From contig NZ_LT934425.1 of NCBI RefSeq assembly GCF_900232105.1, positions 2,490,001 to 2,522,000 of the forward strand: a DNA stretch of 32,000 nt, written 5' to 3'. Numbering within the stretch: position 1 is the first letter of the stretch; each line of letters opens with the position of its first letter. This document shows, in pieces, positions 1 through 30,498 of the stretch. The DNA is from Candidatus Kuenenia stuttgartensis. GTDB lineage: Bacteria; Planctomycetota; Brocadiia; Brocadiales; Brocadiaceae. The position numbers were made by a program, and so were the translations under genes. A model generated the notes under the pieces. The model did no database searches, was not told the origin of the DNA, and saw only the letters and a list, made by a program, of their open reading frames with translations.

Positions 1-9
1 TCAAAAAAT

Positions 10-819
10 TTGATCGAATTTTTAAAAAATAAAGCCTTATGGGTGCGTAAAGAGACCTTGAATATTCACAGGATAGCACAGGAAACAAGACTGGCTTCCT
101 CTTTATCTGCTGTGGAGATATTTGTGGCTTTGTTTTATGGTAGGATTCTAAATTTTGATCCCAAAAATACCCTATGGGGAAATAGGGACAGATTTATTAT
201 CAGTAAGGGTCATGGTTCAATTTCATTGTATCCGGTACTTGCAGATTTGGGATATTTTGATATGCAGGAATTGAAACGGGTGTGCAAAGAGGGTTCTTTT
301 CTCGGAGCAATTCCGGATACTATAATCCCCGGATACGAGACAATAAACGGCTCTTTAGGACACGGTCTTGGGGTTGCGTGCGGTATTTCCCTTGCTTTGA
401 AAAGAAAAAACAAAAGTGAAGAAGTTTTTGTACTTCTTGGTGATGGTGAATTATACGAGGGTTCGGTATGGGAAGCAGTCATGTTTGCAGGGGCGCATAA
501 ATTGGATAATCTGGTATTAATAATAGATAACAATAAAATTTGTATGCTTGATTATTGTAAAAATATACTGGATTTAGAACCTCTTAGCGAGAAGTTCAAG
601 ATGTTTAGATGGATGGTTAGAGCAGTTGATGGGCACGACATTAATCAATTATATAAGTCCTTAAAAGAATTAAAAGAGAGTAAAGATAACAAACCAAAAT
701 TATTGATAGCTAGTACTGTAAAAGGAAAGGGTATACCAAGCCTTGAAAATGACCCCTTGAGTCATATAAAAAACATAAAACCTGACGAAATTGACAAAGC
801 AATAGAGGAATTAAAATGA
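10..819 (+). CDS. Split transketolase, N-terminal thiamine-diphosphate-binding subunit
   Basis: 269-aa ORF with SKGHGS..LY, GSLGHGLGVACG and GDGELYEGSVWEA..LDNL..IIDNN blocks typical of the TPP-binding half of transketolase. ATGA overlap with the next ORF. The frame is open to base 1, so the true start may lie upstream of the window. Confidence 0.85.
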   Translation: MIEFLKNKALWVRKETLNIHRIAQETRLASSLSAVEIFVALFYGRILNFDPKNTLWGNRDRFIISKGHGSISLYPVLADLGYFDMQELKRVCKEGSFLGAIPDTIIPGYETINGSLGHGLGVACGISLALKRKNKSEEVFVLLGDGELYEGSVWEAVMFAGAHKLDNLVLIIDNNKICMLDYCKNILDLEPLSEKFKMFRWMVRAVDGHDINQLYKSLKELKESKDNKPKLLIASTVKGKGIPSLENDPLSHIKNIKPDEIDKAIEELK

Positions 820-1778
820 TTACAGAGAGAAAGAGCATGAGGGATGTCTTTATAGAACAGATTTATCATCGTATGTCTGATAACAGCTCAATCTTTTTTC
901 TCTCTGCTGATTTTGGTTCACCGAAGCTTGATAAACTGAGAGAGGATTTTAGTGACAGATTTATAAATGTTGGTATTGCAGAGCAGAACCTAATAAATGT
1001 CTCGACAGGTTTAGCGTTGGAAGGGTTTACTGTGTATGCCTATGCTATTGCACCATTTTTGATAATGAGGGCTTATGAACAGATAAGAAATAACCTCTCT
1101 CTGCTTTCCCATACTCATAAGGTAAATGTAAACTTGGTGGGAGTTGGCGCAGGCTTGAGCTACGATGTATCAGGACCAACGCACCACAGCCTCGAAGATA
1201 TCAGTATAATAAGAACCTTACCCAACCTAAGCATTTTTTCTCCCAGCGATTGTTTACTCGCAGAGAAGTTTGTGGATTATTCAATAGAACACAAAAGCCC
1301 GAAATATATCAGGTTTGACGGTAAGCCATTGCCGGTTATTTATGGAAACACGAAGAGTTTGGATATACAGATCGGATTTTTTGAACTGACAAAGGGCGAC
1401 AATGTATGTTTGGTTTCAACGGGCTATATGACGCATACAGCCCTGAAGGTAGTTGAGAAATTGACCAAGGAAAATGTTTTTATCGGGCTTGTTGATGTTT
1501 TTCTGATAAAACCGCTTTATGAGGATTTACTTTTTGAGGCACTGAGTAAATATAAATATGTGATAACTCTTGAAGAGGCATTTATAAATAAAGGTGGCCT
1601 GGACAGTCTGGTATCAGGCATTTTAAATAATAAAGAAGCAAGCATTAAATTAAAAAAAATGGGATTTAGCGATAAATATCTTTTTGAGATGGGCGGAAGG
1701 GATTGCATGCACAAGTTAAATGGACTGGATGAAGACAGTATTGTCAAAGATATAAAAGACTTGCTGAGAAAGATATAA
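816..1778 (+). CDS. Split transketolase, C-terminal (pyrimidine-binding plus C-terminal domain) subunit
   Basis: 320-aa ORF with GIAEQNLINVSTGLALEGF..YAYAIAPFL.MRAYEQIRN, the typical transketolase/DXS-like Pyr-domain signature. Translationally coupled to the N-terminal subunit. Confidence 0.85.
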   Translation: MITERKSMRDVFIEQIYHRMSDNSSIFFLSADFGSPKLDKLREDFSDRFINVGIAEQNLINVSTGLALEGFTVYAYAIAPFLIMRAYEQIRNNLSLLSHTHKVNVNLVGVGAGLSYDVSGPTHHSLEDISIIRTLPNLSIFSPSDCLLAEKFVDYSIEHKSPKYIRFDGKPLPVIYGNTKSLDIQIGFFELTKGDNVCLVSTGYMTHTALKVVEKLTKENVFIGLVDVFLIKPLYEDLLFEALSKYKYVITLEEAFINKGGLDSLVSGILNNKEASIKLKKMGFSDKYLFEMGGRDCMHKLNGLDEDSIVKDIKDLLRKI

Positions 1779-1786
1779 GGCAGAGA

Positions 1787-3247
1787 ATGGATATAGTCTT
1801 AATTAATCCTGGTGACAGGAAGCAGGTTTATCAAAACCTTGGGGAAGACTACGCTGCAATTGAACCTCCGTTCTGGATTGCTGTAATAGGTGCTTATCTT
1901 AGAAATAATGGGTTTGATGTGGCAGTTATTGATGCAAACGCTGAAAATATTTCTCCACAAGAAACTGCAGAAAAAGCAAATAGATTACAACCGTTATTGT
2001 CTGCAGTAATAGTTTATGGCTCGCAACCTTCTGCATCTACACAAAATATGACAGTTGCAGGAAGAATTTGTAAGGCATTAAAAACAAACACATCTTCGAA
2101 GGTAGCTATAGGAGGACTTCATCCATCGGCATTGCCAAAAAGGACATTAGAGGAAGAAGAGGTAGACTTTGTTATTGAAGGAGAGGGTACTTTTACATTA
2201 GAACACCTTCTTAACATTTTAAGATCGGGTAGCAAGGATTACTCTAGTATTCCAGGCCTGTGGTATTTTGATAATGGAGCTATAAGAAATAATCCAAGAC
2301 CGTCGCTTATTAAAGATTTAGATAAAATGGTACCTATTGCAGCATGGGATCTTTTACCAATGGAAAGATATAGAGCCCATAACTGGCATTGCTTTGATGA
2401 TATAAATAACAGGATGCCTTATGGCGCAATATATACAAGCCTTGGCTGCCCTTACAATTGCGTATTCTGTTGTATAAATGCTCCATTTGGAAAACCAGGG
2501 ATAAGGTATAGAAGCCCTGAATTGGTAGTAGCAGAAATAGGTTTATTGACAAGCAAATACGGCATAAAAAATATAAAGATAGTGGATGAATTATTTGTTT
2601 TTAATGAAAAGCATTACATGTCAATCGTAGATTTAATAATCCGAAAAGGTTATAACCTGAATATGTGGGCTTATGCAAGGATTGATACGATTAAGCAAGA
2701 ACATTTTAAAAAAATGAAAAAGGCAGGAATTAATTGGCTTGCATTAGGTATTGAATCGGCAAGTGTTGTAGTAAGAGAAGGTGTCAATAAGAGGACCCGA
2801 GTAAAAGATATTATAAAAATTATAAGAATGATTCAATCTGAAGGTATTCGAGTGGGTGCAAATTACATTTTTGGTTTACCAGACGACAATCTTGAAACTA
2901 TGCAGGAAACCCTGGACATGGCTATGGGAATAAATTCTGAACTGGCAAATTTTTATTGTGCAATGGCTTACCCCGGCTCGGAACTTTATGATATAGCCAT
3001 AAAGGAGGGTTGGGAGTTGCCAAAGGAATGGTATGGATATTCACAGCACTCTTATGAAACCTTCCCTTTACCGACAAAATATATTAGCGCCAGAGAAGTA
3101 TTAAAATTCAGGGATGATGCATTTCATAAATATTCATCAAGTCCCATTTATCTAAATATGATAGAGAATAAATTTGGGAAAATGGTCAAAGAACATATTC
3201 AAGAAATGACGAAAACCAGATTAAAAAGAAAATTACTTGAGAGCTGA
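1787..3247 (+). CDS. B12(cobalamin)-binding-domain radical SAM enzyme
   Basis: 486-aa ORF. N-terminal Rossmann-like B12-binding region (VAVIDANAEN..., KVAIGGLHPSALP) followed by the CxxxCxxC cluster motif (SLGCPYNCVFCC). This is the only intact copy of a gene whose 3' end recurs three more times downstream. Confidence 0.85.
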   Translation: MDIVLINPGDRKQVYQNLGEDYAAIEPPFWIAVIGAYLRNNGFDVAVIDANAENISPQETAEKANRLQPLLSAVIVYGSQPSASTQNMTVAGRICKALKTNTSSKVAIGGLHPSALPKRTLEEEEVDFVIEGEGTFTLEHLLNILRSGSKDYSSIPGLWYFDNGAIRNNPRPSLIKDLDKMVPIAAWDLLPMERYRAHNWHCFDDINNRMPYGAIYTSLGCPYNCVFCCINAPFGKPGIRYRSPELVVAEIGLLTSKYGIKNIKIVDELFVFNEKHYMSIVDLIIRKGYNLNMWAYARIDTIKQEHFKKMKKAGINWLALGIESASVVVREGVNKRTRVKDIIKIIRMIQSEGIRVGANYIFGLPDDNLETMQETLDMAMGINSELANFYCAMAYPGSELYDIAIKEGWELPKEWYGYSQHSYETFPLPTKYISAREVLKFRDDAFHKYSSSPIYLNMIENKFGKMVKEHIQEMTKTRLKRKLLES

Positions 3248-3273
3248 CTCTCTAAATTGCTCATTGCTCTATA

Positions 3274-3479
3274 TTTCGCCTCTTCGATTTCTGTGACCTG
3301 ATCATCGTGAGAGGATATGGCCTGAATATCTGGGCTTATGCCAGAGTTGATACAGTCAATGAAAGATGCTAGCCAGGAGGAAACAATCGGGCATCAACTG
3401 GGTGGCCTACGGTTTTGAATCCGGGCGCATGAAAGTGCTTGACGGGGTCAGTAAAGGATACTTTCAGAATGAAAAATAA
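3274..3479 (+). pseudogene. Mid-gene fragment of a second B12-rSAM paralogue (frameshifted)
   Basis: Translates as ..DLIIVRGYGLNIWAYARVDTVNE then, after a frameshift near 3360, ..GINWVAYGFESGRMKVLDGVSKGY. This parallels ..DLIIRKGYNLNMWAYARIDTIKQE..GINWLALGIESASVVVREGVNK (about residues 276-345) of the intact gene. The nucleotide sequence is clearly diverged from the intact copy. Confidence 0.6.
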
Positions 3480-3499
3480 AAATATGGAGGAGGAAAAAG

Positions 3500-3721
3500 A
3501 TGGAAGTCATAAGCAAGACAAAGATACTCGGAGATGGTGATATTGAGCTTTCTCCCGAGGCAAAAGAAAAACTCAAAAAATTGGTGGGAAAAACAGTAAG
3601 GATCGTTGTGCAAGAGGAAAAGGAGCTTGCCAGTCCCCTTCTTGAACTCTGTGGAAGGGCCGATGTGAAAATCAAAGACGGCTCCCTAAATCATGATAAG
3701 TATATCTATGGGGGAAAATAA
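3500..3721 (+). CDS. AbrB/SpoVT-type antitoxin (VapB-like)
   Basis: 73-aa ORF with a GGAGGAGG RBS upstream. It has swapped-hairpin-like N-terminal features (ILGDGDIELSPEAKEKL.KLVGKTVRIVV) and a C-terminal NHDKYIYG tail, also seen in the antitoxin-like ORFs at 27235 and 30127. Sits directly upstream of a PIN remnant. Confidence 0.6.
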   Translation: MEVISKTKILGDGDIELSPEAKEKLKKLVGKTVRIVVQEEKELASPLLELCGRADVKIKDGSLNHDKYIYGGK

Positions 3722-3724
3722 CCC

Positions 3725-3910
3725 TTGGAAAAAGCCTTTATTGACATTTCCTACTGGATTGCTTTTTTGAGTCTGTTTAGAAAAATAGAGTATAAAGATC
3801 TGAGTTTTGTAGATTGTACCAGTTTCACCCTAATGAAAAAGGAAGGGATTGCAAGGGCTTTGACATTCGATGCACATTTCGAGCAGATGAGTTTTCTCAA
3901 AGAGCCATAA
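3725..3910 (+). pseudogene. PIN-domain (VapC-like) toxin remnant with a large internal deletion
   Basis: 61-aa ORF with a TTG start. The N-terminal PIN strand (AFIDISYWIAFL) joins directly to the C-terminal PIN block (SFVDCTSFTLMKKEGIARALTFDAHFEQ). About 70 residues of a normal ~130-aa PIN domain are absent. Confidence 0.55.
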
Positions 3911-4069
3911 AGGGTAACAGATGTAGGTAAAAATGGATTGCCATGCGGTAGTGCGGATAAGGTCGTCCGGGAAAGGTTGAAGATGAAAAATAAACCTAGT
4001 GTCTAATTGCATAAATTGTTGATAGTATTTCTCTCCAGAAATCCCTTTATTCTATGGGTATTCGAGGCA

Positions 4070-4083
4070 ACAAGATATCTTGT
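4070..4083. promoter_or_regulatory. Perfect 14-bp palindrome ACAAGATATCTTGT, candidate operator upstream of the mazEF-like pair
   Basis: Read directly from the sequence, 66 nt upstream of the 4149 start. It is nested inside a 16-bp inverted repeat (3996..4011 ctagtgtctaattgca / 4091..4106 tgcaattaaacactag, 15 of 16 matching). A TTGATA -35-like hexamer lies at about 4019. Confidence 0.3.
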
Positions 4084-4148
4084 GTACTATTGCAATTAAA
4101 CACTAGAGAAAAATGTGGGAAGTGTACCAAATTTAAAGGAGTTTCTAA

Positions 4149-4343
4149 ATGAATTACAATCCTGTTAAAATAACCGTTGAAGAGATAAAGCATATCTTGC
4201 CCAGACTTTCGAGGTGCCAGATCATAGAATTAGATCAAAGAATTCACGAATATCTGGAGACATCCCTATTGACCAGGGCTTCAGAAACAGCATTCTCTGA
4301 ATGGGAAGACCCTGAGGAAGACCTCTATAATACCGATGTTTAA
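4149..4343 (+). CDS. Putative antitoxin of the MazF/PemK-like toxin
   Basis: 64-aa acidic-tailed ORF (..SEWEDPEEDLYNTDV) with an AAGGAG RBS. It overlaps the start of the downstream PemK-like ORF by 8 nt. Assignment rests on position only. Confidence 0.5.
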   Translation: MNYNPVKITVEEIKHILPRLSRCQIIELDQRIHEYLETSLLTRASETAFSEWEDPEEDLYNTDV

Positions 4344-4674
4344 ACCCGGCACTATAGTATTGGTCAATTTCCCTTTCACTGATAGCCAGTCTTCGAAGGT
4401 AAGACCTGCTTTGGTGCTTACCAAGAAGGGGGATGACGTTATCATCCTTGGTATTTTTTCCAAGTCCATTGATGGGCTTCGTGAGTCATGGATCAAAGTT
4501 GATGGACTTAACCCGGATTTTCATAAAACAGGATTGAAGAAGACCTCTATCATTAAAACGGAAAAAATCACAGTAATTCACCAGTCCTTGGTTCAGAAAG
4601 AACTCGGTTCCCTCTCCTTTGAATTAATGCAACAAGTTAGAAAAATACTTCGTAAAACTCTGGAAATTGAATAA
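4336..4674 (+). CDS. MazF/PemK-family endoribonuclease toxin
   Basis: 112-aa ORF starting MFKPGTIVLVNFPFTDSQSSKVRPALVL, the hallmark PemK/MazF N-terminal SH3-like signature (G.iv.v.fp......K.RPalVl). Confidence 0.8.
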   Translation: MFKPGTIVLVNFPFTDSQSSKVRPALVLTKKGDDVIILGIFSKSIDGLRESWIKVDGLNPDFHKTGLKKTSIIKTEKITVIHQSLVQKELGSLSFELMQQVRKILRKTLEIE

Positions 4675-4881
4675 AAAGAGGCTGGGCAAGTACATCACGC
4701 AATCCGCAATCGTCCTAATGACCCAATGGCCTATTGATTTTTTGCTATGCGATGTCAAGATTAGATTCTGCTGCCCCATGAAAATGGGCAATTGCAACAT
4801 GCCACAGTGCAACGACTTAAAAAGGCGCGTTTTGGCAAAATGGCTCTTTTTCAGCAGAATCAAGATTAAAGACATGGTCAC

Positions 4882-5241
4882 ATGACAGCCATTGAAACAA
4901 TGCAGGAAACCCTGGACATGGCTATGGAAATAAATTCTGAACTGGCAAATTTTTATTGTGCAATGGCTTACCCTGGCTCTCAACTTTATGATATAGCCAT
5001 AAAGGAGGGTTGGGAGTTGCCAAAGGAATGGTATGGATATTCACAGCACTCTTATGAGACCCTCCCTTTACCGACAAAATATATTAGCGCAAGGGAAGTT
5101 TTGAAATTTCGAGACGATGCATTTTGTAAATATTTCAAAAATGCAGATTATTTGAATATGATGGAAGGAATATTTGGGAAAGAAGTTAAAGAACATATTC
5201 AGGAAATGGCGAAGACGAGATTGAAAAGAAAAATTCTTGAA
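4882..5241 (+). pseudogene. rSAM 3'-end copy B (equivalent to about residues 370-486), lacking everything upstream
   Basis: ETMQETLDMAMEINSELANFYCAMAYPGSQLYDIAIKEGWELPKEWYGYSQHSYE..KTRLKRKILE aligns collinearly with 2894..3247. The tracked ORF reads through to 5406 into repeat sequence. Confidence 0.75.
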
Positions 5242-5344
5242 ACAGGACGTTATATTTTTTCGGAATTCGGAATAGGGATCAGCATGAAGTGCCTCTTTGC
5301 AGACGCTCGATTCTTGGAGAATGGAGTAGTATTTAGGGGTAAAT

Positions 5345-5456
5345 GGGACAGGCTGAATTGTAAGGAGGATTTTGAAATATGCCCAGGATTCCAAGGGGAT
5401 TGGTAGATGGATTTATTTATCATGAGGCGAGAAAAGGTAGAAAGGTAGCCTGTCCC
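5345..5456 (+). mobile_element. RayT(COG1943)-like mini-element, copy 1 (internally deleted; REPtron/MITE-like)
   Basis: Bounded by inverted 10-mers gggacaggct (5345..5354) and agcctgtccc (5447..5456). Inside, ATG at 5379 encodes MPRIPRGLVDGFIYH, the canonical start of COG1943 Y1 transposases (MPR.aR....G..YH..RGN.R). This joins directly to a short K/R-rich tail like the gene's extreme 3' end. Confidence 0.5.
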
Positions 5457-5552
5457 CTTCCCCCCTTTGATTATATATCCCATTGGGGTTATCGATGATG
5501 CGAAGGCTTGTTTAAAAAATGTTTTTGGTAAAAAGAGTGAGGAGGTTGAAAT

Positions 5553-5867
5553 ATGCACAGCTTAATAGAATTATCCCCTAATTTAAAAGGTATATTTAAA
5601 GAATTTGGAGAGAAGGCAGAAGATATAGTAATGAAGGCATTGTCTGCCGGGCTCAGGGAACTTCTGAGAGAGTGCGAAGAGGAAATATTAGAGTTTGAGA
5701 TAAAATATGGACTCTCTTTTGAAAAGTTTAAAGAACATCTCGAAAAGGGAAATGTAGGCGATTTTCACTCTTATCCTTTAGAAAATGACGCAATGTTATG
5801 GGAAGACCTTGAAGAAGAGAAACGGATTAGATTAGAATCATTGCGCAAATTGGAACGACTAGATTGA
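5553..5867 (+). CDS. Hypothetical small helical protein, candidate antitoxin partner of the next ORF
   Basis: 104-aa ORF with a GAGGAGG RBS. Its stop overlaps the start of the downstream ORF. It contains an FEIKYGLSFEKFKEHLEKGNVGD...NDAMLWEDL block of the kind seen in small antitoxin-like proteins (recollection only). Confidence 0.35.
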   Translation: MHSLIELSPNLKGIFKEFGEKAEDIVMKALSAGLRELLRECEEEILEFEIKYGLSFEKFKEHLEKGNVGDFHSYPLENDAMLWEDLEEEKRIRLESLRKLERLD

Positions 5868-6193
5868 TGTTGGGCAACTTAAAAAATGAATTGTTTCAAT
5901 TATTAGAAAAATATTTTCCTTCAATTCGAATCGACAGTAAGGAAAAACGTGGAATTATACTCGAAGTGAGGGCGCATATCGATGAGGCAACTTTCATTGT
6001 GGTTTATGCTAATGCCATAACTGGAAAGAGGAGTTTTGCTCTAATCTCAAAGGGTGAGAGGATAATTGGCTATGACAACTACAAGTTTTGGCACTATCAT
6101 CCTCCTGGCGAGCCAAACAGCCACATTCCTTGTGATGAACCTTCCATAGAATCGATAATTTTAGAGTTTAAGGCTGTACAAGAAAAATACTAA
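5864..6193 (+). CDS. TumE-like / DUF6516-like putative toxin
   Basis: 109-aa ORF. The block GERIIGYDNYKFWHYHPPGEPNSH matches my recollection of the ..RI.GYDN....HHH. core of DUF6516 (TumE family). Needs HMM confirmation. Confidence 0.5.
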   Translation: MMLGNLKNELFQLLEKYFPSIRIDSKEKRGIILEVRAHIDEATFIVVYANAITGKRSFALISKGERIIGYDNYKFWHYHPPGEPNSHIPCDEPSIESIILEFKAVQEKY

Positions 6194-6214
6194 CTTTTTA
6201 CGAGAGGGTAAAAT

Positions 6215-6319
6215 GGGACAGGCTGAATTGTAAGGAGGATTCTGAAATATGCCCAGAATTCCAAGGGGATTGGTATATGGATTTATTTATCATGAGACAA
6301 GGAAAGGTAGCCTGTGCCC
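6215..6319 (+). mobile_element. RayT(COG1943)-like mini-element, copy 2
   Basis: Near-identical to 5345..5456 (gggacaggct...MPRIPRGLVYGFIYH...agcctgtGccc). Same orientation, on the other side of the 5553..6193 gene pair. Confidence 0.5.
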
Positions 6320-6450
6320 TTTGTTTTTAATGCTCTTTTTTTAAAATGCATAACTGTAAGGCATTGATTATATGAGGCTTCCGTAAAGTTTGGAGCATTG
6401 GGTTTTTTGTCATTTGAATTTGTTTCGTATTTCGATATTCGTATTTCGAA

Positions 6451-6478
6451 TTTGGTTGCGGCCAAAGGCCGCTCTAGG
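6451..6478. repeat. REP-like palindromic unit (tttggttgcggccaaaggccgctctagg)
   Basis: Contains the hairpin gcggcc-aaa-ggccgc. It is the reverse complement, 27 of 28 matching, of 6695..6722. Preceded by the short tandem ttcgtatttcga x2 (about 6427..6450). Confidence 0.6.
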
Positions 6479-6503
6479 TACTTCATGGTGATACTATGAG
6501 TAG

Positions 6504-6695
6504 TAAAAATATGGAGGAGGAAAAGGATGGAAGTCATAAGCAATGCAAAGATACTCGAAGATGGTGACATTGAGCTTTTTCCGCAAATTTAAAGGAGGTT
6601 CTAAATGAATCCTGTTAAAATAACCGTTGAAGAGATAAAGCATGTCTTACCCAGACTTTCGAGGCGCCAGATCGTAGAATTAGATCAAAGAATTC
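6504..6695 (+). pseudogene. Second-copy remnant: start of the AbrB-like antitoxin fused to the 5' half of the mazE-like gene
   Basis: 6504..6580 matches 3476..3555 (MEVISNAKILEDGDIEL..). It then jumps to the equivalent of 4128.. (aaatttaaaggag..ATG at 6605, MNPVKITVEEIKH.LPRLSR.QI.ELDQRI). The mazE-like reading frame is cut at 6695 by the insertion. Confidence 0.7.
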
Positions 6696-6722
6696 CTAGC
6701 GCGGCCTTTGGCCGCAACCAAA
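6695..6722. repeat. REP-like palindromic unit (cctagcgcggcctttggccgcaaccaaa), inverted partner of 6451..6478
   Basis: Read directly from the sequence. It forms the first 28 nt at the left junction of the 1.7-kb insertion. Confidence 0.6.
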
Positions 6723-8395
6723 AAGGTGATTTTTAGTTTATTATAAAGTATAGTAGTATCCTCGTAAATAGTAATCAGACAATTTGGAGGACACTACTTA
6801 TGAATAAGTTGATGGAATTATATCGAGACAGGATCGTGGGTGCAATAAGCGGTCTGGACAGGATTCGTTTTCGCGGGACATTGCGGTGGTTGGCCAGTGA
6901 GCGTGGGATGGGAACATTCATGAACCAAGCGAGAATTCTGCTTAAGGATTTTTCCGGTTGGGTCAATGGGCTTACGGCACAGGTGCGAGACAGTTGTGAA
7001 TCGCGGGCGAAAGATTTGGGTATCGAGGTGCGGTATTTGATGAGCAGCGGTGTTGATAAGGAGAAGTTGGCTCGCCAGATCGCGGCGGATAAGAGGATTA
7101 CGGAAGGTTCCATCTGCCTGTTGAGTGTGGTAGAGCCTTGTATTGCGCCGATGGTCAAGGGCAACAAGGCCAGCAAGAAGCTCGAGTTGGTAATGGCGCC
7201 CCGCAAGTGTGTCTTTGTGTATCATTATTTTAACGATCCAGTGTTTGGTTTTGGTCATGTTCGTATCCAGAGTTGGGCGCCGTTTAATATTTTCATTTGT
7301 CTCAATGGTCGTCATTGGCTGGAGCGGCAACTTCAGAAGCAAGGTATTGATTATGTTAAGGACGGCAACTGTTTTGTGCGTATAGAGGATATTGCGGCTG
7401 CGCAGGTTCTGCTCCATGAGCAGCTTAAGACTGACTGGGCGAAGCTGCTGAACGGGCTTGCGTTGGGCAGTTGCCCGGCATTGTCGCAGATTCTTCGTCC
7501 GTTGGAACCGGAGTATTACTGGTCTGCGGATGAGACGGAGTGGGCGACGGACATCATGTTTAAATCGGTTGAGGCATTGGAGGAGTTGTTTCCATCGTTT
7601 GTTCATCATGCGATGCGGGTTTGCGACAGTTCTTCGGTGATGAAGTATTTGGGTAGGCGTAACCTTGCAGGCGCTGCCCCTGATGAGGTTATCAGCGACT
7701 ATCGAAGACGCTATGAAGGTATACGGGTCAAGCACAGTGTGAATTATAATTCAGTGAAGATGTATAACAAGAGCGGTAGTCTCTTGCGTATTGAGACAAC
7801 GATCAATAATACGCGGGACTTTAAGGTCTTTCGGAGTCCCAATGATGATGAAGGCAAACCGGCGTCATGGCAGAAGATGCGTAAGGGCGTAAGCGATCTT
7901 CATCGACGGTGTGAGGTGAGCCAACAATGCAATGATCGTTATGGGGATGCTTTGGCGGCGGCTCAGGTAGAGGAGAAACTGAAAGAAGTGGTGAGCAGCG
8001 CTTGTAACAAGGTTGTCAAAGAGGGCAAGAGGTATCGAGGTTTGAATCCCTGGCAGCAGGATGATTACCAGATGCTGATGTTCCTGTCCAAAGGCGAAAA
8101 CGCGATAAATGGATTCCGCAACCATGATTTGCGTAAGTGGCTTTACCGGGAATCCGAACAATCCGGCAAGGATCAGCAAAAGAAATATTCCGGACGAACG
8201 ACCCGACGGATAAAGATGCTGCGGGCACACGGTCTAATCCGCAAAGTTCCGAGGGCCAACCGCTATGTTTTGACGGAGAAAGGCCAGAAGTTCTCTTGTT
8301 CACTGATGACCGCTTCAGCCCTTGATATTAAAGCACTTACGGAAATGGCGGCATGAAAAACACGCATAAAAAACAAGAAATTGATGGATAGTAGT
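6696..8395 (+). mobile_element. 1700-bp insertion of unclassified type interrupting the second mazE-like copy
   Basis: The uninterrupted copy reads caaagaattc|acgaatatctggaga (4236..4260). Here the same two halves lie at ..6695 and 8396... The insert is visibly G+C-richer than its flanks and has a single long ORF. No terminal IRs and no duplication at the outer junctions. A 9-bp direct repeat ATAGTAGTA occurs at 6750..6758 and 8388..8396. Confidence 0.65.
6800..8356 (+). CDS. 518-aa protein of unknown family, cargo of the insertion (putative mobility protein)
   Basis: Long ORF with a GGAGG RBS (6786..6790). Foreign-looking composition. C-terminal winged-helix-like segment (RRIKMLRAHGLIRKVPRANRYVLTEKGQ). 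I cannot recognise a DDE, HUH, serine or tyrosine recombinase motif by eye. Confidence 0.5.
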   Translation: MNKLMELYRDRIVGAISGLDRIRFRGTLRWLASERGMGTFMNQARILLKDFSGWVNGLTAQVRDSCESRAKDLGIEVRYLMSSGVDKEKLARQIAADKRITEGSICLLSVVEPCIAPMVKGNKASKKLELVMAPRKCVFVYHYFNDPVFGFGHVRIQSWAPFNIFICLNGRHWLERQLQKQGIDYVKDGNCFVRIEDIAAAQVLLHEQLKTDWAKLLNGLALGSCPALSQILRPLEPEYYWSADETEWATDIMFKSVEALEELFPSFVHHAMRVCDSSSVMKYLGRRNLAGAAPDEVISDYRRRYEGIRVKHSVNYNSVKMYNKSGSLLRIETTINNTRDFKVFRSPNDDEGKPASWQKMRKGVSDLHRRCEVSQQCNDRYGDALAAAQVEEKLKEVVSSACNKVVKEGKRYRGLNPWQQDDYQMLMFLSKGENAINGFRNHDLRKWLYRESEQSGKDQQKKYSGRTTRRIKMLRAHGLIRKVPRANRYVLTEKGQKFSCSLMTASALDIKALTEMAA

Positions 8396-8602
8396 ACGAA
8401 TATCTGGAGACCTCCCTGCTGACCAAGTCTTCAGAAACAGCATTCTCTGAATGGGAAGATATTGAGGAAGACCTCTATCATTAAAACGGAAAAAATCACA
8501 GTAATTCACCAGTCCTTGGTTCGGAAAGAACTCGGTTCCCTCTCCTTTGAATTAATGCAACAAGTTAGAAAAATACTTCGTAAAACGCTGGAAATTGAAT
8601 AA
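8396..8602 (+). pseudogene. Second-copy remnant: 3' part of the mazE-like gene fused to the last ~50 nt-equivalent region of mazF
   Basis: Matches 4246..4328 and then 4551..4674. The 222 bp between the two 12-bp direct repeats gaagacctctat (4317..4328 and 4539..4550 in copy 1; a single copy at 8467..8478 here) are missing. Confidence 0.75.
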
Positions 8603-8800
8603 AAGAGGCAGGGTAAGTATATCCCGCAATCCGCAATCGTCTTAATGGCCTATTGATTTTTTGCTATGCGATGTCAAGATTAGATCCTGCTGTCCCATGA
8701 AAATGGGCAATTGCAACATGCCACAGTGCAACGACTCAAAAAGGCGCGTTTTGGCAAAATGGCTCTTTTTCAGCAGAATCAAGATTAAAGATCTGACCCC

Positions 8801-9181
8801 ATGACAGCCATTGAGACAATGCAGAAAACCAAGAAAATGGCAATGTAATTAAATACTGAATTAGCAAATTTTTATTGTACAATGGCTTATCCTGTCTCGG
8901 AACTTTATGATATAGCCATAAAGGAGGGTTGGGATTTGCCAAAAGAATGGCATGGATATTCACAGCATTCTTATGAGACCATACCTTTACCGACAAAATA
9001 TATTAGCGCAAGGGGTGTTTTGAAATTTCGAGACGAGGCCTTTTGTAAATATTTCAAAAATGCAGCTTATATGATGGAAGGAAAATTTGGGAAAGAAGTT
9101 AAAGAACATATTCAGGAAATGACGAAGACGAGATTGAAAAGAAAAATTCTTGAAACAGGACGTTATCCTTTTTCTGAATAG
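8801..9181 (+). pseudogene. rSAM 3'-end copy C (in-frame stop)
   Basis: MTAIETMQKTKKMAM-TAA (stop at 8846..8848), then ..FYCTMAYPVSELYDIAIKEGWDLPKEWHGYSQHSYE..KTRLKRKILETGRYPFSE. Preceded by a copy (8603..8800) of the spacer 4675..4881. Confidence 0.75.
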
Positions 9182-9259
9182 GAATCGGCATGAAGTGCCT
9201 CTTTGCAGACGCTCGATTCAGTAGTATTTAAGGAATAAAATAATGAGCTGGAGGAGTAA

Positions 9260-9592
9260 ATGGATAAGGTAATATTCAATGACAACGAAGAGAAAGCTGT
9301 TTTGAAACTTAAAGAGGTTTTGACGGAAAGATTCAAGCTTCTGGACTTTCGGGTTTTTGGCTCAAAGGCACGTGGCGAAGCCTTGCCTGATTCCGATATC
9401 GATGTCATGATAAAAATTGATGAATATTCACCGGAAATTGAGTCGGCAATTGACGATCTTGTATATGAACTAAACCTCAGCTATGACTGTTTTATATCGG
9501 TTATCATCTTCAGCAAAAAAGAGATAGAAGAAGGTCCTATGAGTGAGTCACAGATATATAAGGCGATCGAAAGAGAGGGAATTAAGGTTTGA
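9260..9592 (+). CDS. MNT-type nucleotidyltransferase (antitoxin of a HEPN/MNT module)
   Basis: 110-aa ORF with the Pol-beta NTase signature FGSKARGEALPDSDIDVMI (GS..RG....SD.D). Overlaps the downstream HEPN ORF by 4 nt. Confidence 0.75.
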   Translation: MDKVIFNDNEEKAVLKLKEVLTERFKLLDFRVFGSKARGEALPDSDIDVMIKIDEYSPEIESAIDDLVYELNLSYDCFISVIIFSKKEIEEGPMSESQIYKAIEREGIKV

Positions 9593-10020
9593 TTCCTGAT
9601 GATAAGAAAGATGCCCTCGCAAGATACAGGATAAAACAGGCAGAAGAAAGCCTTGCGGAGGCGAAGTTTCTCTTGGTAGGCAAGCAGAGTCCCCGCTCTG
9701 TGATCAATAGGTCATATTATTCAATGTTTTACGCTGTATCGGCTTTACTTGTGTATGAACAATACTCATCTTCAAAGCACAGTGGTGTTTTGAGTTATTT
9801 CAATAGACGTTTTGTAACAGGCGGTATTTTCAGTGAAAATCTCGGACGGTCTATAAACAAGGCATTTGAATTAAGACAGCGAGGAGACTATCGTGAGTAT
9901 TTTGAATTGACTTATGAACAGGTTGAACCTTATATTTCTGAGGCGGAAGTCTTTATAAATGCGGTGAAAAACTATTTACAGAAAATAACAAAACCCGCTG
10001 CTGAACAGAATGAACATTGA
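9589..10020 (+). CDS. HEPN-domain protein (toxin of a HEPN/MNT module)
   Basis: 143-aa all-helical ORF: RYRIKQAEESLAEAKFLL....SPRSVINRSYYSMFYAVSALL..., ELRQRGDY. Typical HEPN (PF05168-like) architecture and a canonical position after the MNT gene. TTG start. Confidence 0.7.
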   Translation: MIPDDKKDALARYRIKQAEESLAEAKFLLVGKQSPRSVINRSYYSMFYAVSALLVYEQYSSSKHSGVLSYFNRRFVTGGIFSENLGRSINKAFELRQRGDYREYFELTYEQVEPYISEAEVFINAVKNYLQKITKPAAEQNEH

Positions 10021-10035
10021 AAGAGAGCGATTTTA

Positions 10036-10263
10036 GTGGGTGATCCACCTATTGAAATGCCAGTAGAATGGGATAAATATGTAGATGAACCATTAACAGA
10101 GAAGGAACTGGAAAGGTTGTGGCAGAGCGTAAACAGGCAATCGCCCTTTGGGGATATTATCTGGCAGCAAAAGGTATGCAAAGCATTATGGATTAGAATC
10201 GACCATAAGACCTGTGGAAAGGCCAAAGAAAAATGAGGAAGGCAAGAAAAAGTAGCCTGTCCC
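10036..10263 (+). pseudogene. C-terminal fragment of a RayT(COG1943)-like Y1 transposase gene, with its REP-like end
   Basis: ..WDKYVDEPLTEKELERLWQSVNRQSPFGDIIWQQKV..ALWIRIDHKTCGKAKEK parallels the family C-terminus (..E.EL..lR.s..rG.P.G...w....lGle.t.rprGRPkK). Followed by agcctgtccc (10254..10263), the same terminal 10-mer as the mini-elements. Confidence 0.45.
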
Positions 10264-10285
10264 CTTTCCCTGCCTTTCCCTTTCA

Positions 10286-10516
10286 AAAGAATGGCATGGA
10301 TATTCACAGCACTCTTATGAAACATTACCTTTACCAACAAAATATATTAGCGCAAGGGATGTTTTGAAATTTCGAGACGATGCCTTTCCTAAATATTTTG
10401 AAAATCCAGTTTATTTAAAAATGATAGACGAAAAGTTTGGGAAAAAAGTCAAAGAACATATTCAGGAAATGACAAAAACCAAATTAAAAAGGAAGTTAAT
10501 TGAAAACCAATTCTAA
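10286..10516 (+). pseudogene. rSAM 3'-end copy D (5'-truncated), abutting the pathway genes
   Basis: EWHGYSQHSYETLPLPTKYISARDVLKFRDDAFPKYFENPVYLKMIDEKFGKKVKEHIQEMTKTKLKRKLIENQF-stop. Its stop (10514..10516) overlaps the TTG start at 10500 of the next gene. Confidence 0.75.
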
Positions 10517-11021
10517 AAATAACCAAAAACATAGTTTGGTTTTAAAAAATATTCAGTTAATAGTATACGATTTTGATGGTGTTATGACAGACAATAAAGT
10601 TATCGTACGAGAAGATGGGCTTGAAAGTGTTGTTGTTAATCGGTCTGATGGTCTGGCAATAGAAATGATAAAGAGTAAGGGAATAAAACAAATTATATTG
10701 TCAAAAGAAAAAAATAGGGTTGTAGAAATGAGGGCAAAGAAGCTTGGTATTTCGGTCATTAAAGGCATAAACAACAAAAAAGAAACCCTTATTTCTTACT
10801 GCAAAGAAGAAAATATTCAACTCAATGGTGTGGTTTACATAGGAAATGATATAAATGACCTTGAGGCTATGAAGATGGTAGGTTATCCCATATGCCCTTT
10901 AGATGCATATGAAGAAGTGAGAGAAATATCAAAGATTATTCTTGATGTTCCAGGTGGAAATGGAGTGGTTAGAGATTTCTTAAAATATATAAAGATTGAT
11001 TGTAATCAAGGGGATACATAA
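10500..11021 (+). CDS. HAD-IIIA KdsC-like ulosonate-phosphate phosphatase
   Basis: 173-aa ORF with VYDFDGVMTDNKV (DxD nucleophile motif), RSDGLAIEMIKSKGI, GNDINDLEAMKMVG. This is the KdsC / N-acylneuraminate-9-phosphatase family pattern. TTG start. One-nt overlap with the next gene. Confidence 0.8.
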   Translation: MKTNSKNNQKHSLVLKNIQLIVYDFDGVMTDNKVIVREDGLESVVVNRSDGLAIEMIKSKGIKQIILSKEKNRVVEMRAKKLGISVIKGINNKKETLISYCKEENIQLNGVVYIGNDINDLEAMKMVGYPICPLDAYEEVREISKIILDVPGGNGVVRDFLKYIKIDCNQGDT

Positions 11022-26985: not shown

Positions 26986-27053
26986 ATGGTTGCCATCCCT
27001 ATTATTCCCTCATATCGATAGGTGTATAATGCCTTGCTGAGAAGGGAGCAGGA

Positions 27054-27087
27054 AAGCCGTATGAGGGAAAAACCTCACGTAAGGTTT
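27054..27087 (+). ncRNA. Orphan group II intron domain V-like hairpin (intron 3'-end remnant)
   Basis: aagccgtatgagggaaaaacctcacgtaaggttt aligns position-for-position with the 34-nt DV consensus GAGCCGUAUGCGAUGAAAGUCGCACGUACGGUUC. The AGC triad, CGUAU...ACGUA.GGUU arms and an A-rich loop are present. It has a few deviations and no RT ORF upstream. Confidence 0.55.
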
Positions 27088-27234
27088 GATGAGAAGATGC
27101 TGGAAATAGGGTATGGTTGAGATGGTGTGTGACACTCTCAGAGGAAACGGAGAGAAACAGGGAACACAAATCTTAACCTGTAGCCACTACATCAGTGTTT
27201 TGCTTTACATTTAATAAGGAAGATTGTTAAAGAT

Positions 27235-27417
27235 ATGATTGATGCTATGCCAGAGGATGAGCTTAAAAAAGTCTTTGGAATCCTGGAACGTCTTATAGAA
27301 AAAGACAGTAATGAAGCGTGGTCAGTATGGGAAGAACTTGGTAAAGACGCTGCTGAAGGCAAATGGAATGATGCTTCAGAAAGACACGATTTCTATTTAT
27401 ACGGAATAAAGAAATGA
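27235..27417 (+). CDS. Small VapB-position antitoxin-like protein, copy 1
   Basis: 60-aa ORF ending ..ASERHDFYLYGIKK (an HD.Y.YG tail as in the 3500 antitoxin). ATGA overlap with a PIN-type ORF start. Confidence 0.5.
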   Translation: MIDAMPEDELKKVFGILERLIEKDSNEAWSVWEELGKDAAEGKWNDASERHDFYLYGIKK

Positions 27418-27616
27418 AAATCTTTATTGATACCAGCGCGTGGGTTGCCTTAGAAAACAGAAAAGACATTCACTTGATAAAGATTTTGAACAAATGGGCT
27501 TTGCAAAAAGCCCTTTGCTAACGTATATATGACGTGGGGAATATTTTCCAAACTACTTTTAAACAAATATGGAAATCACAAAAAATATTCACAGTTTCGC
27601 AATCGGGTTCATAATA
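27241..27616 (+). repeat. Direct repeat, copy 1 (~376 bp; partner 30121..30498)
   Basis: Collinear by eye with 30121..30498, with scattered substitutions. Covers the antitoxin-like ORF, the gutted vapC and a decayed fragment resembling an rSAM accessory-domain C-terminus (..DVGNIFQTTFKQIWKSQK..). Confidence 0.7.
27414..27521 (+). pseudogene. VapC (PIN) remnant with internal out-of-frame deletion, copy 1
   Basis: MKIFIDTSAWVALENRKDIH is a canonical PIN N-terminus. The next bases encode, in another frame, DKDFEQMGFAK, a canonical PIN C-terminal t.D.dF block. The domain core is missing. Confidence 0.55.
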
Positions 27617-27810: not shown

Positions 27811-29526
27811 CCTAAATCCTGCAAACAAGGCAAAGCCTTGTTGCAGGAATAGGATTGAAATGGTAGGATTTCCAAGGTATTCGGCGGTATATTGATAACA
27901 AAAAACACCTGAAAGGAGATTCACCATTTCGATGAAGAATATAGCAAAAAAATACAGCAAAAGACAACCGAAAATCAAGGCAGAGATGAGCGGGAAAGGC
28001 TTAACGGTACATGCAGGGCTTTTACCGGTATTGAATTTTATGGGTAAGCTGATGTTCCGGGAGAGAGTCCATGAAGCGGTCCATAAGGATCGTGGAGCAA
28101 ATGCCCGGTATCAGTTTATCGATGCGGTACAAATGGTAGTGATAGGGTTGATAGCAGGGGCGACATCGATGGTAGAGGTGATGAAGGTGTGTACAGATGA
28201 GGTATTGAAGAAGATGTCCGGGTGGAAAGAGGTACCTGTAGATACTACGATAGGACGTATTATGAAGCTGGCGAGTCAGGGAGATATAGTGGAACTGACG
28301 GGGGTGATCCACCGGTTTAGGGGAAAGATATGGAAGCGTGCGGTGAGATCAGGCCATAAACTCAGGAGTGCTCTTTGCGAAGTATGGATAGATGTTGATT
28401 CTACCGTAGATGGTGTATATGGGAAACAGGAGGGTGCAGAGGTAGGATATAATCCGCACAAGAAGGGGCAGAAGGCGTATCATCCCTTAATGGCATTTAT
28501 TGCAGAAACAAAGGAGGTATTACATAGTTGGTTCCGCTGTGGAAGCGCCTACACGAGTAACGGAGTAGTAGAGTTCATGAAGGAATGTATGGCGTACATG
28601 AATAAGGGGGTAAGGGTGGTATTTCGGGGAGACAGCGGTTTTTTTACCGGAGAATTACTTGAATACCTTGAGTCAATATTGGCGGGATATCTGATTAAGG
28701 TAAAGCTGAAGAATCTGGAAGGATTGCTTGAAGGGCAGAAATGGAATGAGGTGAAAGGGGAGCCAGGATGGGAACAGGCTGAATTTTGGTATCGATGTGC
28801 AGGGTGGGATCGTGCGAGACGTTTTGTGGCAGTGCGGCAATTGGTCAAAAGAGAAAAGAAATTAGTAGAAGTGTCCGTGTATGAGTATTTTTGTTACGTT
28901 ACAACGGAGCGGTTAAGTCCGATGGAAGCGCATCGTTGTTATGGAAAGAGGGCTACCTGCGAGACTTTGATAGAAGAGAGTAAAGGACAGATGAATGCGG
29001 GGCACATACGTACGGGTGAATTTTTGGCCAATGCTGCGCTATTTCAGTGTGCGGTGTTAGCGTATAATCTTTTGAAGTGGATGGGATTGCTCAGTGGTGG
29101 AGTGATACAAAAGTGGGAAGTAAAGACGATGAGACTGTGGTTAATCCGTGTGGCAGGGAAACTGGTGGAGAGAAGCCGGCAGATGACATTAAAATTGCCG
29201 GAGAAATTTCTCCATCAGGAGGAATGGGAAAAGTGGGAACGCATGTCACTGGATGTAGTTTTTCAGTAGAAAACCGACGTTGTATTTCGTTTTTTTAGTC
29301 TTTTGAGAGTGGTAAGTATACCGCAGATGGAGACAGTACATCCCTATCTTGATTTTCATTGCATCAGAGAGCACGTTTCCGACAATTTCCCATGTCTTTT
29401 TGTTTAAAGTAGTACAATAGCGCTACCACAATTGCTAAAAAACGGATATCTGTTATCGCTTTTTGCCAATCTTGGTAGTGGAAAATACTGATTTTCGCAT
29501 TGCGAAAATCGTTTGCAGGATTTAGG
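27811..29526 (+). mobile_element. IS1380-family insertion sequence (1716 bp)
   Basis: Perfect 16-bp terminal inverted repeats cctaaatcctgcaaac (27811..27826) / gtttgcaggatttagg (29511..29526). Flanking 5-bp direct duplication TATTA (27806..27810 and 29527..29531). Single transposase ORF. Confidence 0.85.
27932..29269 (+). CDS. IS1380-family DDE transposase
   Basis: 445-aa ORF with WIDVDSTVDGVYGKQEGAEVGYNPHKKGQKAYHPLMAF, VVFRGDSGF and CETLIEESK blocks, which is how I recall the IS1380 family signature. Confidence 0.9.
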   Translation: MKNIAKKYSKRQPKIKAEMSGKGLTVHAGLLPVLNFMGKLMFRERVHEAVHKDRGANARYQFIDAVQMVVIGLIAGATSMVEVMKVCTDEVLKKMSGWKEVPVDTTIGRIMKLASQGDIVELTGVIHRFRGKIWKRAVRSGHKLRSALCEVWIDVDSTVDGVYGKQEGAEVGYNPHKKGQKAYHPLMAFIAETKEVLHSWFRCGSAYTSNGVVEFMKECMAYMNKGVRVVFRGDSGFFTGELLEYLESILAGYLIKVKLKNLEGLLEGQKWNEVKGEPGWEQAEFWYRCAGWDRARRFVAVRQLVKREKKLVEVSVYEYFCYVTTERLSPMEAHRCYGKRATCETLIEESKGQMNAGHIRTGEFLANAALFQCAVLAYNLLKWMGLLSGGVIQKWEVKTMRLWLIRVAGKLVERSRQMTLKLPEKFLHQEEWEKWERMSLDVVFQ

Positions 29527-29864
29527 TATTATAGAACTGATTGAGGATGGAAGGATTGACCTGATTACCTCATCAGTGGTAGAATTTGAGTTAAAGAAAA
29601 CACCTGATCCGGAACGAATATCTTCTGGATTAAAAGTAATATCGTTACATTCAGAAAGAATTACTTTGTCTGATAAAATTGTTAAGAGAGCCAAAGAATT
29701 TGAAATGCGAAATATAAAGGCAATCGATGCGCTACACCTTGCGATTGCTGATGTAGAAAAAATAGATTATCTTTGCACATGCGACGATAGGTTTCGCAAA
29801 AGTGCAAGCAAGATCAAAAAGCTAGATACAAAAATTGTTTCTCCTATAGAATTTATAGAGGAGT

Positions 29865-30074
29865 ATGAAAATGATTACGATAACAAATAATGAAATAAAT
29901 AAAGAAGCGTTTGAAGTTCTTTTTAAAGAACTTGGCGTTAGCAAAACGATACGGTTTATAAACCAGTTTAGCGCTGGAAAAGGAAACTATACTGAAATGA
30001 AAGATAAAATATTTAAAGGAATGACGGTGGATGATATAGTTTCTGAAATCGAATCAAACAAAGATTTACCATAA
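29865..30074 (+). CDS. Small hypothetical protein downstream of and overlapping the PIN gene (possible cognate partner)
   Basis: 69-aa ORF overlapping the PIN gene 3' end by 26 nt. No recognisable motif; the role is inferred from position only. Confidence 0.35.
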   Translation: MKMITITNNEINKEAFEVLFKELGVSKTIRFINQFSAGKGNYTEMKDKIFKGMTVDDIVSEIESNKDLP

Positions 30075-30120: not shown

Positions 30121-30498
30121 GGATGCTATGCCAGAGGAAGAATTTAAAAAAATCTTCGAAACACTGGAATGTATTATGGAAAAAGACAGTAATGAAGCGT
30201 GGTCAGTATGGGAAGAACTTGGTAAAGGCGCTGCTGAAGGCAAATGGAACGATGCTTCTGAAAGACACTATTTCTGTTTGTACGGAATAAAGAAATGAAA
30301 ATCTTTATTGATACCAGCGCGTGAGTTGCCTTAGAAAACAAAAAAGACATTCACTTGATAAAGATTTTGAACAAATGGGCTTTGCAAAAAGACCTTAGCT
30401 AATATGTATATGCCATGTGAAATATTTTTCAAATTCTTTTTAAACAAATTTGGGAATCAGAGAAAAATTTTTCCACTTTCGTATCCGGGTTTATAATA
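30121..30498 (+). repeat. Direct repeat, copy 2 (partner 27241..27616)
   Basis: See 27241..27616. Homology ends exactly where the MITE-like element begins (30499). Confidence 0.7.
30127..30297 (+). CDS. Small VapB-position antitoxin-like protein, copy 2 (56 aa, below the ORF-track cutoff)
   Basis: Hand translation: MPEEEFKKIFETLECIMEKDSNEAWSVWEELGKGAAEGKWNDASERHYFCLYGIKK. AAGGAGAGAGAGG lies upstream. The following vapC start (30294) now carries TGG>TGA at codon 10. Confidence 0.45.

Follow-up and report, generated by a model that had tools for sequence, protein, structure and literature searches.

Displaced 3' ends of a B12-binding radical SAM gene as probable remnants of successive alleles in a mosaic glycan locus of Candidatus Kuenenia stuttgartensis

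In a stretch of 32,000 nucleotides from the genome of Candidatus Kuenenia stuttgartensis (contig NZ_LT934425.1, positions 2,490,001 to 2,522,000 of the forward strand), the whole of which is called the window here, an intact gene encoding a B12-binding radical SAM (rSAM) protein is followed by three further copies of its own 3' end. The intact gene (1787..3247) lies on the plus strand, as do the other stranded features described below, and its 486-aa product matches the Pfam families B12-binding and Radical_SAM. The final 76-118 codons of this gene recur three times downstream in the same orientation. Taking the final ~118 codons of the gene as copy A (2892-3247), copy B (4892..5241) covers rSAM residues ~366/369-486 in an open frame from which the stop codon is missing at its normal position, copy C (8811..9154) covers residues ~365-486 and carries an in-frame TAA (8845-8847) and a 6-nt deletion, and copy D (10284..10516) covers residues 411-486 plus two more in an open frame. 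When the window was compared with itself (self-BLASTN), A matched B at 87.5% (2892-3240 against 4892-5240, E 3e-121), C at 81.1% (2892-3240 against 8811-9153, E 3e-89) and D at 83.2% (3021-3240 against 10284-10503, E 5e-61). With the 486-aa rSAM protein as TBLASTN query, the amino acid identities were 86% for B (369-486), 75% for C (365-486), which is the most decayed of the copies, and 79% for D (411-486). A sequence-only reading of the same DNA had proposed four direct copies of the rSAM end essentially at these positions, and the homology of B, C and D to the rSAM C-terminus, with BLASTN E-values of 5e-61 or lower and 75-86% identity at the protein level, bears that proposal out. Users of public genomes should be aware that B, C and D are annotated there as small hypothetical proteins.

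The three types of tail distinguished in that reading are likewise present, A ending in KRKLLES, B and C in KRKILETGRY.. and D in KRKLIENQF, and the coordinates of the open reading frames (ORFs) agree with its observation that the end of D (10516) overlaps the TTG start codon (10500) of a KdsC-like gene. Differences between the copies are chiefly synonymous or conservative, with no hypervariable stretch. The repeats are 81-87% identical across 220-350 bp, their ends have no common identical core, and the longest identical run is 76 nt between A and B and 28 nt between A and D. Given identities of 81-87%, precise excision between copies should be rare. The same holds for the recombination of A with D envisaged earlier: it would indeed give an intact 488-aa gene adjoining the KdsC-like gene, but with an identical run of only 28 nt such an event is expected to be rare. 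These properties also bear on the idea that the copies are functional silent cassettes, retained to vary the C-terminus of the enzyme or to switch on the downstream pathway through a deletion between A and D. The open frames of B and D and the predicted product of that deletion agree with such a role; nevertheless, we regard it as highly improbable, since the differences are of the kind described above, C is disrupted, the identity shared by A and D is so short, and no recombinant was seen among the assemblies read. The copies differ in these respects, the lack of hypervariable segments and of recombinants, from the silent cassettes of the pilE/pilS system.

The copies are old. Pairwise ratios of nonsynonymous to synonymous substitution (dN/dS), computed between the copy ends with bootstrap replicates, lie at 0.13-0.22 with a dS of 0.5-0.9, so that the earlier description of the copies as old rather than fresh duplicates is upheld. 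The individual values are 0.18 for A-B, 0.18 for A-C and 0.13 for A-D, and replicates with a ratio of 0.5 or above amounted to 0.3% or less for each of these pairs and to 1.2% for B-D. A ratio of 0.38, with a wide interval, was obtained for B against C, a value that fits partly neutral divergence following a common truncation. The low ratios, the open frames of B and D and the fact that C has just one stop and one 6-nt deletion together argue that the ends diverged inside working genes, and since the copies are nearly free of decay their decapitation would be recent. Nucleotide identity among A, B, C, D and two relics of the same gene end at other loci (L089 and L090, see below) is 80-91%, as against 78% at most with orthologues from other genera, which indicates that the copies are alleles or variants of one lineage. 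In fact, an intact gene with a D-type end exists elsewhere: the 488-aa gene P0038 on contig L093, which stands in a different gene neighbourhood, is 92.4% identical to D at its 3' end, whereas A and D are 83% identical.

The divergence of the copies also tells against their being reverse-transcribed, 5'-truncated copies of rSAM mRNA. Copies of such an origin would agree in their 3' ends and be truncated to various extents at their 5' ends, as is seen here, and group II intron remnants are present in the window at 27052-27143 and 31153-31822. We find this origin scarcely credible, however, because the homology stops at the stop codon and not at the end of a transcript, the copies are 13-19% diverged from the resident gene and under purifying selection, and each has its own downstream context, which is conserved in other genomes.

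Comparison with other assemblies, in three of which the rSAM protein is identical, reveals how the region varies between strains. Two segments are needed to follow this comparison: the non-coding segment j (4698..4891), which adjoins B and has a copy, j' (8625-8810), adjoining C, and segment k (5242..5313), a 72-bp tail after B with a copy, k' (9155-9219), after C. Two loci, L081 and L082, are 99.9% identical to window 1-3944 and carry different pathways thereafter. They lack window 3945-4636, and an unrelated stretch of 133 bp takes the place of the end of j and all of B, so that it precedes k; this stretch resembles neither the rSAM gene nor any other sequence compared. Both loci then keep window 5242-6313 at 99%, followed by a 186-bp copy of j' (98% identical to 8625-8810) that leads into a pathway of rSAM-SPASM, NeuB, CMP-transferase-like and aminotransferase genes, with none of B, C and D present.

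In strain CSTR1 (a 4.33-Mb genome; locus L091) the genes upstream of the rSAM gene encode a thiamine pyrophosphate enzyme and a NUDIX protein instead of the transketolase pair found in the window, and the rSAM allele is 92% identical overall to that of the window. CSTR1 carries window 4094-6313, including B, at 99%, and then j' and the SPASM/NeuB pathway, without C or D. A more distant similarity to the window (68-80%) returns further downstream in this genome as well as in L081 and L082. The identity between window and CSTR1 is not uniform along the rSAM gene itself: it starts at 70% over the first 200 bp, then varies unevenly between 85 and 97%, and reaches 99-100% at the 3' end and past it. 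This gradient argues for crossovers of diverged alleles inside the gene. The locus thus has two marks of a mosaic locus, a gene content that differs between strains with common segments on either side and recombination breakpoints within a conserved gene. Gene conversion between A and B was considered as a candidate process and rejected: the CSTR1 version of A matches B at five of the six sites at which it differs from A of the window, L093 has the same base at four of five, and these therefore look like ancestral states.

The segments j and j' relate the two middle copies to each other. In CSTR1, L081 and L082, j' continues into the upstream region of the SPASM pathway, and in the window it continues into C; a single illegitimate joining event between a j-type end and rSAM codon ~366 would yield the latter arrangement. 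The similarity between B and C includes their flanks, 4533-5313 matching 8461-9219 at 90.6% in the self-BLASTN, which agrees with the common origin earlier claimed for them. Because the two junctions between j and codon 366 are 90% identical together with these flanks, we take them for a single event that was inherited twice, and not for independent insertions.

Relics of the same gene end are also found in other lineages. At locus L089 a frameshifted D-type relic begins at residue 386 and overlaps a KdsC-like gene; the identity to window 10284-10910 is 92%, and the genes further on belong to a different pathway. Locus L090 has a distant version of the upstream module (47% amino acid identity for the rSAM protein, 41% for tktN and 37% for tktC), and ~70 bp past it, according to TBLASTN positions, stands a Kuenenia-type rSAM end that starts at residue 358 and is followed, at 90% nucleotide identity, by the mid-gene fragment and the AbrB start that are described below for the window. 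This locus is a clear and clean case of an incoming upstream module that decapitated the resident gene. A further rSAM relic, at L095, starts at residue 382. The relics of L089, L090 and L095 and copy D differ in their 5' ends and have no j segment. Across the five lineages, then, the relics begin at residues 358 (L090), 366-369 (B and C), 382 (L095), 386 (L089) and 411 (D), a span of ~55 of 486 codons.

The window contains one more piece of the rSAM gene, an old and frameshifted relic of residues 282-335 (TBLASTN; 3295..3455, composed of 3295-3366 and 3375-3455). The sequence-only reading had reported this mid-gene fragment as 3274..3479 (residues 276-345) and as collinear with B; the fragment is real and in gene order with B, but it is shorter than that and frameshifted. 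It follows A in every Kuenenia-type locus read, including L081, L082, L090 and L091. Its amino acid identity to all orthologues is 52-63%, with ~52% to A itself, so that A does not stand out among them, whereas the orthologues of A in other phyla are 63-78% identical to A over the same residues among the 30 best matches listed. Being further from A than most orthologues of other phyla, the fragment does not look like part of the same gene copy as B, for which the identity to A is 86%. On its divergence we regard it as a much older relic and do not take it for the front half of B.

The reading favoured in the earlier note was a tandem array of rSAM paralogues in which every member except the first was decapitated in place and invaded by mobile DNA and toxin-antitoxin (TA) cassettes. 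In agreement with such an array, the copies share one orientation and are collinear and old, the mid fragment precedes B as it would in the gene, and many relatives have further, distant B12-rSAM genes downstream. The context of the rSAM gene was surveyed in 80 species-representative genomes with an rSAM orthologue (54-77% amino acid identity), together with the Kuenenia-lineage loci read. The orthologue usually stands behind a split transketolase pair, tktN-tktC, and the genes downstream of it vary. Orthologous copies in tandem were found in none of the 80 genomes and in none of the Kuenenia-lineage loci, L081, L082, L091, L090 and L093 each having one intact orthologous copy. The other B12-rSAM genes nearby in the 80 genomes are not copies of this gene, being 21-32% identical to it, apart from one at 41% that lies ~8 kb away. 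In addition, decay in place predicts a dN/dS of ~0.5, well above the values of A-B, A-C and A-D given above; the divergence of the mid fragment far exceeds that of B; B, C and D are absent from strains whose rSAM protein is identical; and the D-type end is a single-copy allele elsewhere (L093). On these grounds the tandem array is a decidedly doubtful explanation. As regards the order tktN-tktC-rSAM (window 10-3247), it is kept in Nitrospirota, Desulfobacterota, Campylobacterota, Elusimicrobiota, Lentisphaerota, Omnitrophota and anammox bacteria (loci L002-L075), and the set usually adjoins DegT-type aminotransferases.

Downstream, the gene that overlaps D (10500..11021) encodes a HAD phosphatase resembling KdsC and KDN-9-phosphatase by its NCBIfam and Pfam matches, although all NCBIfam matches are under the curated cut-offs. 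It opens a module of nonulosonic-acid type with NeuB-like, Gfo/Idh, DegT and CMP-transferase-like genes. The content of the locus as a whole (NeuB, CTP_transf_3, DegT, KdsC-like and glycosyltransferase genes) fits sugar-nucleotide or nonulosonic-acid pathways, with a surface glycan as the putative product. Within 10 kb on either side of the rSAM gene, no KdsC-like gene is present in 78 of the 80 genomes, and in the other two the matches are weak and at chance level (E 0.01 and 0.7) and lie upstream of the rSAM gene. Homologues of the KdsC-like protein at 67-69% identity have a glycosyltransferase or an epimerase gene upstream, not an rSAM gene. A metagenome scan returned no match to the junction between D and the KdsC-like gene, and the scan for a motif common to all copies returned only contig L093.

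Based on the divergence of the copies within working genes, their presence and absence among strains, the mosaic rSAM allele, the D-type allele on L093 and the module replacement at L090, we hypothesize that the copies are the 3' ends of alleles once resident at the locus, which lost their 5' parts through non-allelic or illegitimate recombination during the exchange of modules. To this account we assign a probability of roughly 0.6; its general part, namely that the copies are relics without function, derived from distinct working alleles of a locus that recombines, is firmer than any specific sequence of events. The rSAM gene would act as a conserved linker, or joint, between exchangeable upstream and downstream pathway modules, and the Kuenenia lineage would harbour diverged alleles of it. 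When part of the locus is replaced by DNA from a foreign lineage, one crossover would be homologous and the other would sometimes be non-allelic or illegitimate, falling in the resident rSAM gene. The incoming DNA would deliver a complete rSAM gene plus whatever followed it, for instance TA cassettes, and the resident gene would lose its 5' part, so that its last 75-120 codons stay behind as a relic with their old downstream neighbours. Repeated rounds of such one-sided exchange, plus one event that set a MazEF-j|B unit and a MazEF'-j'|C unit in series, would produce the order A-B-C-D. The serial placement of the B-type and C-type junctions may have required an unequal, possibly insertion sequence (IS)-assisted, event. 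Copy D would be the oldest resident end, still fused to the KdsC-like module with which it arrived, and IS elements, repeats resembling miniature inverted-repeat transposable elements (MITEs) and small deletions would later have remodelled the junctions. The relics are probably without function.

Several observations weigh against this account. An intact junction of rSAM and KdsC-like genes was not found in the 80 genomes, in the contexts of KdsC homologues or in the metagenome scan; the earlier suggestion that D is the end once coupled to the pathway is supported in so far as L089 links a D-type relic with a KdsC-like gene, but the uninterrupted junction it called for did not appear. Likewise, no intact allele with the B/C-type end (..ILETGRY..) is present among the 120 closest protein clusters. 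The 133-bp replacement in L081 and L082 ends within ~1 nt of the boundary between B and k, a coincidence for which the model does not account. Random breakpoints would not predict that the relic starts cluster between residues 358 and 411. This clustering is in part a search bias, since the search with the 77 residues of D returned only short ORFs and made relic length partly an artefact, and breaks may have favoured the zone in which the most conserved 3' stretch begins. Finally, the order and the number of events cannot be uniquely reconstructed from the few assemblies at hand.

The sequence between the copies consists mostly of TA cassettes. In the A-B block, an ORF for an AbrB-like antitoxin (3500-3721) is followed by the remnant of a PIN toxin gene (3725-3910), both recognised by weak matches to the Pfam families AbrB_C and PIN (3500..3910 in all). 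CSTR1 has an intact PIN gene of 138 aa (L091 8720-9136), from the interior of which 230 bp are deleted in the window (L091 8762-8991) and also in L081 and L082; as judged from these ORFs, the toxin would be inactivated and the antitoxin ORF kept. An apparently intact MazE-like/MazF (PemK) pair with overlapping ORFs follows (4149..4674; Pfam PemK_toxin at 1e-12 over the full profile), and then segment j.

Beyond B and k, the B-C block begins with a MITE-like repeat of ~120 bp with inverted termini (AGGGGTAAATGGGACAGGCT / AGCCTGTCCCCTT..; 5335..5459), detected by repeat search and BLASTN, of which a second copy lies at 6205-6321. A terminal fragment of this repeat is also found at 10240-10267, 16 bp before D, and the element may explain the extra 5' truncation of D relative to the relic of L089. 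Between the two full copies, a pair of genes for proteins of 104 and 109 aa, whose ORFs overlap by 4 nt (5553..6193), is probably a TA pair; a TumE match (E 0.011) is weak and under the Pfam cut-off, and a weak PF27273 match is recorded for the 104-aa product. Next comes a second, partial unit at ~90% identity. Its first part (6496..6695) consists of a copy of the AbrB start, 3469-3555 matching 6496-6582 by BLASTN, and of the MazE start, 4128-4245 matching 6584-6695, and its remainder (8396..8810) comprises the end of MazE', 4246-4331 matching 8396-8481, a 3' remnant of MazF' and j'. The two parts are split by an IS that lies in the MazE' gene (6696..8396), has a GC content of 47-50%, higher than its surroundings, and contains an ORF of 518 aa (6800-8356). 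No Pfam or NCBIfam family matches the 518-aa protein, nor does it have an integrase domain. An identical protein is encoded at no fewer than eight sites in CSTR1, several of them within operons and directed as the operon is, and it is indexed in 248 collection blocks. The element has no terminal inverted repeats and no clear target duplication, a hairpin lies near its left end, and a solo inverted copy of that left end is found at 6451-6478; this 1.7-kb IS may represent an undescribed transposase family. The C-D block, finally, contains k', an apparently intact pair of MNT (nucleotidyltransferase) and HEPN genes overlapping by 4 nt (9260..10020; NTP_transf_2 at 2e-10, HEPN at 1e-16), a 66-aa ORF and the MITE end fragment. 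Each block between repeats thus carries an apparently intact TA pair, and all ORFs of the mosaic point in the direction of the operon. Terminators were not in excess in this DNA, and promoter-like sites were so only mildly and uninformatively.

The second possibility raised by the sequence-only reading was a serial integration of elements that target the 3' end of the rSAM gene and carry a replacement end, accreting in tandem as integrase-driven islands do. Direct partial copies of the gene at the edges of the blocks, with the intact gene furthest upstream, are shared with islands that integrate into tRNA and tmRNA genes. In contrast to such islands, however, no integrase or recombinase is encoded among the ORFs of 3248-10499, which comprise AbrB, PIN, MazF, MNT and HEPN, small unknowns and one IS protein, the sole large ORF being that of the multi-copy IS inside the MazE gene. 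A common core site would be expected as the start of all downstream copies and two starts are found in the window, at residues 366 and 411 (386, 358 and 382 in other lineages), and the repeats are long and diverged, without an identical core at their ends. Integration driven by an integrase is accordingly very improbable. No Rfam, tRNA or tmRNA match was obtained in window 1-11000, which means that none of the repeated segments is a known RNA gene or a target of tRNA type.

A recombinase-free version of that possibility deserves more attention. According to it, circles composed of an rSAM 3' fragment and a TA body form between direct copies and integrate by a single homologous (Campbell-type) crossover, and the locus would be an integron-like array whose unit runs from an rSAM end to segment j and whose TA pairs prevent loss. 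A fixed, circle-like junction of j with codon ~366 in both B and C would follow from it, as would the spacing of A and B by one 2000-bp unit and the presence in each block of a TA pair that is apparently intact. Direct j/j' repeats bracket the insert B-k-MITE-TA-MITE in CSTR1, low dN/dS values are expected if relics repeatedly exchange with working genes, and the run of 76 identical nucleotides in A and B is also in its favour. On the other hand, both junctions at codon 366 look like one event inherited twice, D and the relics of L089, L090 and L095 lack j and have other 5' ends, no circular or empty-site form was seen, and the first junction would need an illegitimate event anyway. We consider these cassettes unlikely, and retain them as a rival. 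Less likely again is the wider proposal that TA cassettes spread between Kuenenia lineages without a recombinase, using a ~350-bp piece of a glycan gene as landing pad and held in place by their toxins. If it were true, TA landing-pad units would form an integron-like array by homologous recombination alone, and the repeats would also shuffle the adjacent sugar-pathway modules. Chromosomal integron arrays resemble the locus in that small cassettes of one orientation, with many TA pairs among them, lie between repeats; they differ from it in that IntI and attC-type sites are absent here and the repeats are pieces of a protein-coding gene. By analogy with these arrays, it is possible that the TA pairs prevent deletion, and those that are apparently intact in each block may counter-select excision also in the account that we prefer, that of decapitated former alleles.

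Loci for O-antigen, capsule and lipooligosaccharide are known for mosaic evolution, with gene remnants and IS elements at the junctions of modules. The window, L081/L082, CSTR1, L089, L090 and L093 share with such loci exchangeable modules, diverged alleles, crossovers in conserved genes, and pseudogenes and IS elements at junctions. They are unlike them in that the same gene end has here been left three times in series and in one orientation, with a filler made up mostly of TA cassettes. A second parallel is offered by the orphan arrays of rhs and cdiA (displacement model), whose displaced 3' ends code for variable toxins, each followed by its cognate immunity gene. There, too, a full-length gene is followed by co-oriented, 5'-truncated 3' copies displaced by incoming DNA, with addiction-type pairs in between. 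The ends described here, however, belong to the conserved C-terminus of an enzyme, are 75-86% identical at the amino acid level and have no variable domain, and the TA pairs are separate and unrelated to them. The mechanism is therefore not new, and the locus is an example of the known process by which mosaic loci evolve; a further difference is its host, an anammox planctomycete, and the locus is not described in the published comparison of Kuenenia genomes (PMC7709395).

Elsewhere in the window, a second pair of direct repeats (27241-27616 and 30122-30498, 88% identical), each made of a small antitoxin-like ORF and a PIN start, flanks an IS1380-family transposase gene (27932-29269) and a PIN-containing pair (29513-30074); here, too, TA duplicates stand on either side of mobile DNA. 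The group II intron pieces mentioned above match the Rfam catalytic-domain model below threshold (30 bits, the gathering score being 40), and the reverse-transcriptase-like ORFs that belong to them are fragmented at the end of the window. The repeats around the rSAM ends explain breaks in assemblies of the region: the short-read contigs L085-L088 (window 9190, 9879 and 10289 onward) end at or next to them. One of these, L088, begins 5 bp inside D and has there no exact 31-mer shared with the other copies, a hint that upstream of D a second variant is present in sample DRR859385.

A comparison of Kuenenia genomes has reported high plasticity in genome structure and in surface proteins, and the S-layer protein of Kuenenia stuttgartiensis is heavily glycosylated (PMC7709395). 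The locus described here provides a concrete and datable record of the rebuilding of a putative surface-glycan locus in an uncultured, slow-growing anammox bacterium. The rSAM gene would have served as a recombination joint between alternative sugar-pathway modules, each past exchange leaving a gene end behind. This record complements the published variability of surface proteins between Kuenenia strains and suggests that the glycan coat varies between strains as well, perhaps under pressure from phages or grazers.

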